Source of the DNA: Chitinophagaceae bacterium
GTDB lineage: Bacteria > Bacteroidota > Bacteroidia > Chitinophagales > Chitinophagaceae
Assembly: GCA_043755055.1 (NCBI GenBank)
Contig: JAYUTQ010000780.1
Coordinates: 1-32,095, forward strand
DNA length: 32,095 bases
Direction of reading: 5' to 3'
This document shows, piece after piece, positions 15,372 to 17,240 of this stretch. Positions within the stretch are counted from its first letter, which is position 1. Every line of letters starts with the position of its first letter. The position numbers and the translations under genes were made by a program. Below the pieces are notes generated by a model. The model saw only the letters and a program-made list of their open reading frames with translations, searched no databases and had not been told where the DNA came from.

Positions 15372-17240
15372 TTAGCAGTTGCACCATCCTACAGTACCAC
15401 CACCATTATTTTCGTAGTCTTCGTTTGCTGTTTGTTTTATGCGTAAAGCCAAATCGTTTGTTTCTTCTTCTGTTGCCGGAATGAAACCACTTTGCACCTC
15501 TTTAACCATTTCTTGTTTTTGCAATTCTGTGAGGTAATTGTATTGGCCCAGTTCTCTATATGCTGTAGCTGTATTGGCATCTTTTTCTATCAGTTCCGTT
15601 ACTGTATCTTTTACCTGCTCCTGTTGATAAGGGGTGATGTTGCTGTAATCGTTTTGTAAATTTTTGTATTCAAAGGCATTGGCAGCATCAGCCACTACAT
15701 CCGGAATATCATCTGCACCAAAATCAACATCTGCTTTTTTACCACCTAGTTTACTAATGATCCAACCGATGGCATCCATTACAGCACCTAAAATATTGCC
15801 ACTGGCTGCTTTGCTAAATGTGGCAACCAAATTCAGCTTTTTACGTTCTGCATTAAATAACTGTTCTCTTTGCTCAACAGTGGTGATAGGTATATTTGGC
15901 TGTGCTGTACCAGGCAATATTTTAGTAAGCTTGCCCGGCTGTGCAAAAGCACTAACCAATGTGGTATTGGGTGCAGGTCTATTGGCTTCTTTCTTGTTGA
16001 CGATTTTCTTTTTCATCTTTTTGGCATTAGGGTTGCCAATGCCACTAATACCAACCCTTTTAAGTTCTGCAGCCAGAAAAGCTTCCGGACTTTGCTGAAA
16101 TCGTTTTGTGAGATTATTGCGAATGATACCCATGAAATGGGCGTCTTTCATGCCTAATTTATTGCATACGAAATTTTTAAACTTTACCGCTTTTTCTCTT
16201 TTGCGCTTCATTTTATCTGGCAGTATTGTTACTACAGATTCAGCTACAAAAAGGTATAGAAAAGCAGGTGCAGCTTTAGGAAGGTATATTTCTATAATTC
16301 CTTTACCAATTAAACGCAATGGAGTGGTAACAACTTTTGCAACAGCTTTGGTACCTTTTTTGATGCCGGTACCAACATTCTTTAAAAACTTACCAATTTT
16401 CAGTTTGCCAATTTCGGTACTACCTAAAAAGCTATCTGCAAGCCCATTAATTACATTCGGGTTTTCCATATTGGCAATAACATGGTTTACCATGTCAAGG
16501 CTTCTTTGATACCCTTCTACTTTCCAGGTACCACCCACACGCCTTGCATTATCCTGGTCTATTTCCAGTTTTTGTCTGGCCAGTAAAAGGGTTAATTCTT
16601 CCTCGGTAATTTCATCCACCGGTTTGGTAAGCTTTAGCATTCCACGGTGCGGATTGTGAGGGCTTGCGGGAATACCAGCCATGGTGCCAGTGCTTCCCAG
16701 ATATACAATTTTTGGCATCAGATGATCTTCTTTGTGTGTGTAAGTTTTTTGCGTATTAAACGGACCATTCCAAACTGCATCGATTATTATTTCGGCCCCC
16801 TCCGCCCCCGGAGGAGGAACTGCAGCCAGCGGCACGAAGATGTAGACGTGTGTTGGCGTCGGGTCGTTTGGGTCGTAGCTTGTAAAGCGGTATCCATATT
16901 CAATGCCCAGGTTTTTTAAAATAGAGGCACAAAAAACAGAGAACGATTTGCAGTCGCCGCTTTTATCTGCCCACAACCTGCCCGGGCTTTTTATGAACTG
17001 GTAGCCATGTGGATCCAGTTGATAAGGGATCTGTGTTTTTACAAACTCCCAAACATTGCTGCAGGTTTCCAAAACTGATTTGCCCCTAAGTGAATAAGCA
17101 AATTTTTTGGTATAGTCAGCACAAAATTTATCGGCATTCAGTACCACAGAAATAATATCCTTCGTATTGCCATTTTCAAAAAAGACTTTGTCTTCTTTGC
17201 TTTTGGCAGCTACAATCAGATGTGTAGGATATTGCTTCAT
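15372..17240 (-). CDS. Transglutaminase-like cysteine protease-fold protein with a long Lys-rich helical C-terminal region
   Basis: The Cys-His-Asp core can be read as GDCKSFSVFCASIL (C), PTHVYIFV (H) and IIIDAVW (D). The 28-nt GC-rich element (AVPPPGAEGA) is inserted between the His and Asp segments. Confidence 0.65.
   Translation of the reverse strand: MKQYPTHLIVAAKSKEDKVFFENGNTKDIISVVLNADKFCADYTKKFAYSLRGKSVLETCSNVWEFVKTQIPYQLDPHGYQFIKSPGRLWADKSGDCKSFSVFCASILKNLGIEYGYRFTSYDPNDPTPTHVYIFVPLAAVPPPGAEGAEIIIDAVWNGPFNTQKTYTHKEDHLMPKIVYLGSTGTMAGIPASPHNPHRGMLKLTKPVDEITEEELTLLLARQKLEIDQDNARRVGGTWKVEGYQRSLDMVNHVIANMENPNVINGLADSFLGSTEIGKLKIGKFLKNVGTGIKKGTKAVAKVVTTPLRLIGKGIIEIYLPKAAPAFLYLFVAESVVTILPDKMKRKREKAVKFKNFVCNKLGMKDAHFMGIIRNNLTKRFQQSPEAFLAAELKRVGISGIGNPNAKKMKKKIVNKKEANRPAPNTTLVSAFAQPGKLTKILPGTAQPNIPITTVEQREQLFNAERKKLNLVATFSKAASGNILGAVMDAIGWIISKLGGKKADVDFGADDIPDVVADAANAFEYKNLQNDYSNITPYQQEQVKDTVTELIEKDANTATAYRELGQYNYLTELQKQEMVKEVQSGFIPATEEETNDLALRIKQTANEDYENNGGGTVGWCNC

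Follow-up and report, generated by a model that had tools for sequence, protein, structure and literature searches.

Rickettsia palindromic elements (RPEs) are about 100–150 bp long and have extended, imperfectly palindromic arms, and the GC clusters of yeast mitochondria, short GC-rich palindromes in an AT-rich genome, can sit in frame in var1. In-frame intragenic RPEs and repetitive extragenic palindromes (REPs) have been documented in Rickettsia, Opitutus, Thauera and other bacteria (Di Nocera et al. 2013, PMC3733652). Another group, the BoxC/PIT/TM repeats, follows the design CCCTCNCCC-N3-6-GGGNGAGGG-N3-GGGNGAGGG (Holder et al. 2015, PMC4666352). One of them, TM_ECO, forms a purine-motif intrastrand triplex in vitro and has 23 copies in K-12; it is always intergenic, was not found on phages, plasmids or transposons, has no transposase nearby, and marks unusually variable loci, being linked to local genome variability and rearrangement in E. 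coli (PMC4666352). As far as the work of Hoyne & Maher (2000/2002) is cited in the same paper, PIT/BoxC showed no promoter or terminator activity in E. coli (PMC4666352). In Methanomicrobiaceae, repetitive elements made of a potential G-quadruplex (G4) and an adjacent C-tract are interspersed and, in vitro, interconvert among hairpin, antiparallel-triplex and G4 forms (Chashchina et al. 2021, PMC8044849). Here, we describe a 28-nt G/C-rich element (the 28-mer) inserted in frame in two unrelated genes of a 32,095-nt prophage contig (JAYUTQ010000780.1, assembly GCA_043755055.1, Chitinophagaceae bacterium), the whole of which we call the window. Mini-repeats that colonise genes had been described in Rickettsia and a small number of other bacteria; the present ones come from soil and sediment Bacteroidota and their prophages.

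Both copies lie on the minus strand and are translated in the same frame as VPPPGAEGA, one within the open reading frame (ORF) of a 622-aa protein (gene 1; context ...PLAAVPPPGAEGAEIIID..., also given as ...VPLAAVPPPGAEGAEIIID...), the other within that of a 346-aa protein (gene 2; ...TAPPVPPPGAEGASLHK..., also given as ...KTAPPVPPPGAEGASLHKVP...); coordinates are collected in Table 1. An earlier reading made from the letters alone (the sequence-only reading) had reported this pair, and its positions, the identity at 26 of 28 nucleotides and the shared frame proved exact. Similarity ends sharply at the edges of the 28-mer, and the longest contiguous identical run is 17 nt. When both strands of the window were searched with a degenerate 28-mer pattern, these two sites were the sole matches, and 100 dinucleotide-preserving shuffles gave none. 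The nine shared codons differ at three places, all of them synonymous third positions (CCT/CCC, CCT/CCA and GCC/GCT). Also in agreement with the earlier reading, the host genes are unrelated, neither protein occurring in the list of homologues of the other, and their setting is AT-rich, the window having a mean GC content of 40%. No convincing target-site duplication was seen at either site, the boundaries being ambiguous. The 9-bp GC hairpin formerly ascribed to each copy was recovered for copy 1 (−20.9 kcal/mol, with one G-U pair), whereas copy 2 folds (−18.8 kcal/mol) into 5+3 bp flanking an A-A mismatch.

The protein encoded by gene 1 matches Pfam families slightly below the cut-offs, and its homologues carry PF01841/PF04473. 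Residues C97, H131 and D154 are invariant in 28 homologues, and the best Foldseek matches are 3isr and 3kd4, both putative cysteine proteases. PHROG gave no match for this protein or for the 346-aa one, and IMG/VR yielded no useful related loci with either the 346-aa protein or an alignment of the 622-aa family as query. For a comparison of the loop, 60 of the 112 homologues found were aligned. Between THVY.FVP(L) and EII.D, homologues have about four residues (KNGK, AGGG, GSGK etc.) and the window protein has 11; among the 60 aligned sequences, a loop of this length, amounting to a net gain of seven codons between P-L and E-I-I, was found only in the window protein and in P0015. The nearest relatives, P0002 and P0003 (60–67% identity, depending on the alignment), are without the insert. 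In the AlphaFold model, the insert sits at a beta-hairpin turn between the His strand (131–137) and the Asp strand (150–153), with a predicted local distance difference test (pLDDT) score below 50 at residues 140–147 and confident flanks. The placement between the catalytic His and Asp, in a loop, had been anticipated, and the invariant triad and the two strands bear it out. On this alignment, the copy in gene 1 is a lineage-specific insertion.

Gene 2 has 25–26 homologues and is syntenic in L024 and in L037–L040. VPPPGAEGA was present in none of 25 homologues, and the one closest in sequence (P0234 from L037, 87% identical) shares the ATG and the sequence upstream of it but is 14 codons shorter here, the element being part of the missing stretch. 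With this ATG (25749) conserved ahead of copy 2, and with no other possible start from the element to the conserved KVPVLTG, copy 2 must be translated. Here again, the copy is a lineage-specific insertion; the orthologues of both proteins do without the peptide, and the ancestral motif considered in the earlier reading as an alternative was not borne out. As a separate observation on gene 2, a 61-nt unitig (depth 3.3, both runs of the source metagenome) joins 25717–25747(+) to the reverse complement of 25566–25537. The junction, of the fold-back or inversion type, falls at an inverted repeat of 13 nt (imperfect; arms at 25557–25569 and 25745–25757) that brackets the start codon and the first 60 codons of the gene, copy 2 among them. 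Of the two junctions that an inversion would produce, only one was seen, which may reflect either an artefact of the library or a segment that truly inverts.

The element also occurs outside the window. In the source metagenome, a 215-nt contig (depth 5–6) is identical to the window over 25678–25707 and diverges to the left, extending the identity with copy 2 to 25678 (30 nt shared), and a 341-nt contig (depth 11, twice the depth) matches 25683–25715 apart from 3 mismatches and an extra T, its divergence lying to the right. At the element, the assembly graph is broken. It was found at no fewer than four, that is at least 4, loci in this metagenome, and three times in 0.5 kb of L044. The exact core had no match in IMG/VR. 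Among JGI metagenomes it had 9, all in contigs of 52–71% GC and best read as chance, and among genomes taken one per species it had 22, of which 21 lay in GC-rich taxa (again chance) and one was real. This real match is in L022, a Chitinophagaceae metagenome-assembled genome (MAG) at 43% GC, immediately 5' of the conserved NuoB core; by our estimate, exact 21-nt matches are expected at about 1e-3 in Bacteroidota genomes of ~40% GC. Both L022 and L044/L045 carry GTTCCCCCCCCGGGGGCGGAGGGGGC at the 5' end of nuoB, read as LVPPPGAEGAV in P0113 (context ...GGLVPPPGAEGAVDVGAAFPGDVY...), and the DNA of L044/L045, GTTCCCCCCCCGGGGGCGGAGGGGGCC, is identical to copy 2 at 25 of 27 positions. Two further variants with the CCCCCACC arm of copy 2 lie within 0.5 kb in L044, one of them antisense, just past the nuoA stop. 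Because these other copies have different flanks, we regard the element as a dispersed repeat common to prophage and host-type chromosomes. The 28-mer is accordingly not confined to the window, and such further copies are what a search proposed with the earlier reading was meant to count. It may be added that L044 has, at ~1870–2250, a diverged tandem duplication of ~190 bp over the nuoB start, each unit of which ends in a copy of the GC element; the element may be involved in this duplication.

Sister variants were found inside other ORFs. The related phage L024 (40% GC) has four in-frame GC inserts with arms CCCCCTC...GAGGGGGC(C), identical in three independent assemblies (Table 1), and two of these copies are identical to each other at 26 of 30 positions, mirroring the window pair. 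In the 346-aa family, P0252 has DSSSPSAAGGKG behind RELRG, and the N-terminus of P0238 contains SYPPLGDGGGDGG and SYPPSGDGGEDGG, an exact in-frame translation of the intergenic repeat of its own phage, TACCCCCCTT(T/C)AGGGGATGGGGGC..., of which five copies lie in L041, the same contig. Host genes are affected as well. NuoD of L046 carries MYRETEIIKESSPIPPLGGGGADMIIN (peptide SSPIPPLGGGGA) downstream of the conserved MYRETEI start and is only 2 aa longer; the element, CCCCCC-TTT-GGGGGG-T-GGGGGGGCC, is absent from the proteins of L047, L044 and L022. NuoB of L047 has ATTCCCCCTTCGGGGGCTGGGGGGGCT, read as IPPSGAGGA. Among 120 NuoB homologues, 69 have a long N-terminal extension and 51 are short, and peptides of the C-run/G-run kind, as detected by a crude pattern, occur in 34/69 long and 0/51 short forms. 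Some of the long N-termini probably result from ORF calls that run too far upstream, through GC hairpins without stop codons in the nuoA-nuoB spacer; the first hairpin of P0118, for one, is probably intergenic. Altogether, related phages and hosts have sister variants in frame in six or more other gene contexts. We also observed that, in the NuoB homologues P0113–P0232, the N-terminal tail before the conserved FPGEVH is hypervariable (total protein length 178–250 aa), the core being 81–95% identical to the query.

The variants share a common layout, namely a C-rich block, a loop of 1–4 nt, a complementary G-rich block, a spacer of 1–4 nt and a second, mirror G-rich block ending in C. An example from L024 is CTCCCCC-TC-GGGGGAG-CTA-GAGGGGG, and an intergenic repeat of L046/L047, CCTCCCC-AAA-CCCCTCC-AAA-GGAGGGG, shows this design on the opposite strand and has two copies in a single nuo operon. 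Copy 2 of the window can be laid out as CCCCC-ACC-GGGGG-CGGA-GGGGGC (C5-N3-G5-N4-G5), and in copy 1 the C block is interrupted. The three-block feature fits copies 1 and 3 of L024, the nuoD copy of L046, the nuoB copy of L047, the intergenic repeats of L046/L047 and those of the window. With a strict C4+/G4+/G4+ pattern, the window gave 4 matches, all of them on the sense strand, where shuffles gave 0.05; L041 had 5 matches and the viral contig L164 had 8. Scanning IMG/VR for TCCCCCTCC-loop-GGAGGGGGC returned 116 stretches, and in ~40% of those listed the hairpin is followed by an unforced third block, N-GGGGG(G/A)(T/G)GG. As observations in their own right, the form TCCCCCTCC(C)-loop-(G)GGAGGGGGC-N-GGGGGGTGGG occurs in L121, L124, L125, L119, L107 and ~30 other IMG/VR loci, on viral contigs of 44–73% GC with up to 3 copies per contig. 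This wide viral occurrence contrasts with the E. coli TM repeats, reported not to be phage-associated. In L121 and L124, hairpin and third block are followed by a second long G/C hairpin. An Rfam scan of eleven viral loci with hairpin and G-block gave no family except an unrelated hammerhead: in L124, a type II hammerhead ribozyme (57 bits) at 5927–6003 (−) directly adjoins one such element.

Table 1. The two in-frame copies, their host genes, the intergenic repeats of the window and the in-frame inserts of the related phage L024 (window coordinates; empty cells, no value given)
Feature	Coordinates	Strand	Details
Element copy 1	16795..16822	-	Sense strand CAGTTCCTCCTCCGGGGGCGGAGGGGGC; encodes (A)VPPPGAEGA, residues 141-149 of the 622-aa protein
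Element copy 2	25682..25709	-	Sense strand CAGTTCCCCCACCGGGGGCGGAGGGGGC; encodes VPPPGAEGA, residues 15-23 of the 346-aa protein
Host gene 1	15372..17240	-	622 aa; phage protein with N-terminal transglutaminase-like cysteine-protease domain (C97/H131/D154)
Host gene 2	24709..25749	-	346 aa; conserved in this phage group beside a ParB-like gene; no Pfam or PHROG match
Intergenic repeat, element-like layout	13555..13574	-	Sense CCCC-TTTA-GGGG-ACA-GGGGC
Intergenic repeat, element-like layout	13614..13633	-	Sense CCCC-TTTA-GGGG-ACA-GGGGC
Intergenic repeat, element-like layout	15053..15073	-	Sense CCCCC-TTTA-GGGG-ATA-GGGGC
Degenerate intergenic copy	13472..13483	-	CCCCTTTAGGGG hairpin; third block decayed to GATAGAGGC
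Hairpin copy without third G block	14557..14568	-	CCCCTTTAGGGG hairpin
L024 insert SSSFGGVRGG			In an 88-aa protein
L024 insert TPPPGRDGGG (copy 2)			Internal in the 346-aa homologue; length equal to L039/L040, hence replacement, not addition
L024 insert SSPSGGARGG			Same His-Asp loop of the orthologue P0015; net +21 nt
L024 insert SPPPGVRHGG...QEGA			In a 295-aa protein; orthologues 261-272 aa

Set against the described systems, the element is neither an RPE nor a tagged REP, and its layout comes closest to BoxC/PIT/TM. With RPEs and intragenic REPs it shares in-frame insertion into unrelated, probably functional ORFs, often at N-termini or loops, with a short peptide added. The comparison with RPEs drawn by the sequence-only reading therefore stands for the behaviour (in-frame, lineage-specific and recurrent) and falls for the family: shared identity ends at 28 nt (30 with one contig), the stem has at most 9 bp, and the element is ~5 times shorter, which sets it apart from RPEs. 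Like REPs, it is an imperfect palindrome of 20–40 nt; unlike them, it has the GTAG/CGTC tag, as defined in PMC3733652, in no copy (the 5' ends are CAGTT/TTAGTT/AAATT). REPs are often dimers, and the element here is ~27 nt long, appears to have few copies and sits on a prophage. In contrast to REPIN-RAYT systems (REP doublets with REP-associated tyrosine transposases), no cognate Y1 (RAYT) transposase flanked by it was found in the window. We did observe a 153-aa Y1_Tnp (IS200/RAYT-like) gene in L046 (17173–17634), between two Proton_antipo_M (PF00361) genes of the host nuo operon. Its flanks (17030–17172 and 17635–17680) bear REP-like hairpins GCTCC-NNN-GGAGC-GACATATT, and similar hairpin+AACATRT units lie in L047 (12240–12550). 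A link to this transposase was rejected for now, the flanking hairpins differing in sequence.

With BoxC/PIT/TM, the relatives of the element share the build of a short dispersed repeat in which a pyrimidine block is followed, across a loop, by its purine complement and, ~3 nt further on, by a mirror purine block. As in TM_ECO (CCCTCTCCC-TGT-GGGAGAGGG-CCG-GGGTGAGGG), the stems are conserved, the loops vary and no transposase is associated. However, the blocks are of 4–9 nt, not 9 nt as in TM_ECO, the sequence is off the consensus CCCTCNCCC..GGGNGAGGG..GGGNGAGGG, and for the window copies the three-block scheme fits weakly (C5-N3-G5-N4-G5). TM_ECO is moreover a repeat of Proteobacteria, intergenic and off phages, whereas the present elements reside in Bacteroidota and prophages and lie repeatedly in frame inside ORFs. 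The term palindromic, used in the earlier reading, is thus apt only in part, the family layout being C-run/G-run/G-run. The Methanomicrobiaceae elements have nearly the same blocks (GGGGGGTGGGG, GGGGAGGGGGC and GCCCCCTCCCC), but they are archaeal, all intergenic and of permuted block order, with the C-tract 3' of the G blocks. Yeast GC clusters offer an analogy only, belonging to another kingdom and replicon, measuring 30–50 bp and falling into different sequence families. Several other explanations were tried and rejected: a diversity-generating retroelement (no template/variable repeat pair), a CRISPR repeat (no repeat array), an attachment site (copies far from integrase and tRNA), and an intein or programmed bypass (reading frame uninterrupted). 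In a literature coverage that was incomplete, we found no report of such elements in phage ORFs or in Bacteroidota, which agrees with the earlier remark that nothing of the kind had been described for a Bacteroidota virus.

Such evidence makes it likely, in our opinion, that the 28-mer is a member of a dispersed, stop-free family of short G/C repeats and that both window copies were acquired within ORFs at tolerant sites, copy 1 at the turn between the His and Asp strands and copy 2 in the N-terminal tail of the 346-aa protein. The family would consist of repeats of ~20–35 nt, almost only G+C, carried by Chitinophagaceae-like Bacteroidota in their chromosomes and by the temperate phages of these bacteria. 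Most copies would be intergenic and in sense orientation, with an occasional copy written into a coding region, where it would survive only with a net length change that is a multiple of three, at a surface loop or a terminal tail. Because an all-G/C sequence cannot contain a stop codon, any copy with a net length of a multiple of three would be translatable, and coding copies would be filtered only by the tolerance of the protein for insertion. While the recurrent colonisation of ORFs in this clade is evident from the compared sequences, the way of copying is something that we infer: it would proceed in trans or by the replication and repair machinery and not by classical cut-and-paste, perhaps by a short patch copied from a template or by template switching during replication, with G-runs already in place (Gly codons) as the nucleation point. 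Copying by patch or template switch would be favoured because the element encodes nothing, no target duplication was seen and some copies replace resident codons, the replacement being suggested by copy 2 of L024, which is without net length change vs L039/L040, and by NuoD, which gained only 2 aa. It would also be consistent with the instability reported for TM repeats. The copying would presumably be non-autonomous, given an element that encodes nothing and a window with no transposase besides the integrase, a Y1_Tnp included. The added peptide is most likely a tolerated passenger.

It is tempting to go further and to suppose an active, undescribed class of hairpin- or triplex-type mobile repeats of ~20–35 nt that pass between host and prophage by strand-specific, transposase-free copying and routinely remodel loops and N-termini. 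We regard this as a rather doubtful possibility; if true, the repeats would be among the smallest coding-compatible mobile DNA known to us and a general source of peptide insertions in the clade.

Even the more modest interpretation, a dispersed repeat family with copies acquired inside ORFs, has to face several facts that weigh against it. Site 1 of the nearest orthologue already has GTT GAG GGT GCA (V E G A), where the window has GTT-[CCT CCT CCG GGG GCG]-GAG GGG GCC; part of the 28-mer may therefore be ancestral at this site, or the L037 sequence could be what is left of a decayed copy. The window and L024 share +21 nt in the same His-Asp loop, which could reflect one old insertion with several losses, or recombinational exchange, and not two independent events. 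The folds are no more stable than dinucleotide shuffles of their own 48 nt (z −1.0 for copy 1 and only −0.5 for copy 2), and hairpin stability was dropped as evidence on this ground. The window copies fit three blocks only if these are 5 nt long, and a plain 9-bp hairpin describes them equally well. Given the rarity of the exact core, the family would be a low-copy, fast-diverging one and not a classical high-copy REP. Neither a filled-versus-empty polymorphism nor a mobilising enzyme was observed. Finally, the differences between the two copies, all of them synonymous, hint at some constraint on the peptide.

This last point leads to the view that the nine residues are a selected peptide module, e.g., a PPPG stalling or linker motif. 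An all-synonymous pattern between the copies would arise by chance with a probability of ~0.03, and the nuoB copy is read in the same frame. Yet sister copies are read in other frames (SSPSGGARGG, SSSFGGVRGG and YPPLGDGGGDGG) or lie in intergenic and antisense positions, and the variants that distinguish the copies (CCCCCACC and CCTCCTCC) are already present in non-coding or unrelated copies. With a modelled segment that is disordered and orthologues that do without the peptide, we find selection for it very unlikely. Somewhat less so, and still unlikely, is that the in-ORF copies are kept as nucleic-acid signals on the mRNA or the sense DNA (for pausing, attenuation, processing or stabilisation, or as the site of a phage regulator), the peptide being a by-product; such a regulator could also recognise the intergenic CCCC-TTTA-GGGG-ACA-GGGGC repeats. 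In all motif copies of the window, of L041 and of the nuoB, nuoD and L024 ORFs, the C-run comes first on the sense strand; intergenic relatives occupy equivalent positions between late/structural genes of different phages, and copy 2 lies 40–70 nt into its gene. Against it, orthologues do not keep the element at matching places within the ORF, as a regulatory site would be expected to be kept; the hairpin energy is, besides, unexceptional, and the E. coli PIT/BoxC repeats are cited, in the paper mentioned above, as lacking promoter and terminator activity (PMC4666352).

The copies could also be direct-repeat recombination sites, by which the 8.9 kb between 16822 and 25682 would be deleted or circularised and the last 473 residues of the 622-aa protein joined in frame to the product of the first 14 codons of the 346-aa gene. 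They are indeed direct repeats in the same frame and on the same strand, and TM/BoxC-type repeats have been linked to local rearrangement in E. coli (PMC4666352). This is nonetheless extremely improbable: 17 nt of contiguous identity is short for homologous recombination, the sole recombinase is the tRNA-adjacent integrase, the same element occurs singly in host genes, and no contig in the two source runs joins both sites, with the proviso that contigs cannot show rare forms. Chance, compositional coincidence or an assembly artefact might be invoked for a low-complexity G/C sequence, most core matches of which lie in GC-rich genomes and look like chance. This explanation is effectively refuted by the shuffles (0/100), the agreement of assemblies from two runs, the L024 inserts that are the same in three assemblies and the ~1e-3 exact 21-nt matches expected.

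If the acquisition of repeat copies by ORFs is the correct interpretation, G/C repeats of the BoxC/PIT/TM type are not confined to intergenic Proteobacterial DNA and extend to Bacteroidota and their temperate phages. They would also enter coding sequence, leaving short Pro/Gly-rich insertions in a transglutaminase-like protease, in NuoB and in NuoD. The loci would offer filled and empty versions of natural sites, from which the mode of copying could be worked out, and a recurrent source of indel variation, as well as possible recombination sites, in phage genomes. They also carry a warning for annotation: a stop-free GC hairpin would in one gene be a genuine coding insertion and in another the mark of an N-terminus called too long.

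As to the setting, a tRNA-Ala(ggc) gene at 172–245, directly adjoined by a tyrosine integrase gene at 279–1487, marks the prophage end or attachment site. A ParE-family (ParE-like) toxin gene lies close to the integrase (2305–2556), and the window further contains a GH19-type endolysin, a ParB-like protein and long tail-type ORFs, nearly all on the minus strand. The source is a sediment metagenome, in which the window was found in two runs at depths of ~6–7 with the same sequence in independent assemblies. Because homologues of the window proteins carry the source names Ferruginibacter, Niastella, Sphingobacteriales or Bacteroidota MAGs, the host is taken as a member of Bacteroidota. The GenBank phage collection held no near-identical DNA or close relative of the window, and an Rfam scan of the window detected the tRNA only.

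Finally, we would like to comment on the intergenic repeats of the window. The sequence CCCCTAAAGGGG has five exact copies (0.17 expected) in spacers between minus-strand structural genes. Three of the five extend to CCCC-TTTA-GGGG-A(C/T)A-GGGGC on the sense strand, and these layout-sharing elements can be written as CCCCTTTAGGGGA(C/T)AGGGGC (Table 1). Analogous repeats lie in equivalent spacers of L041, and 8 occurrences were counted in L164; the window repeats may be a phage regulatory or structural motif. Two other hairpins had been proposed as relatives of the element, and for neither could a relationship be established: the one at 13512–13533 is terminator-like and followed by a T-run on the minus strand, and the one at 24682–24706 is an imperfect hairpin right behind a stop codon. 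The spacer between the 346-aa gene and the next minus-strand gene downstream (23996–24544) contains, at 24584–24633, iteron-like direct repeats composed of two 20-nt units, CTCTACGAACCACTACTAAG and CTTTACGAACCACTACTAAC, with a 10-nt sub-period, which may represent a replication origin or a protein-binding array.

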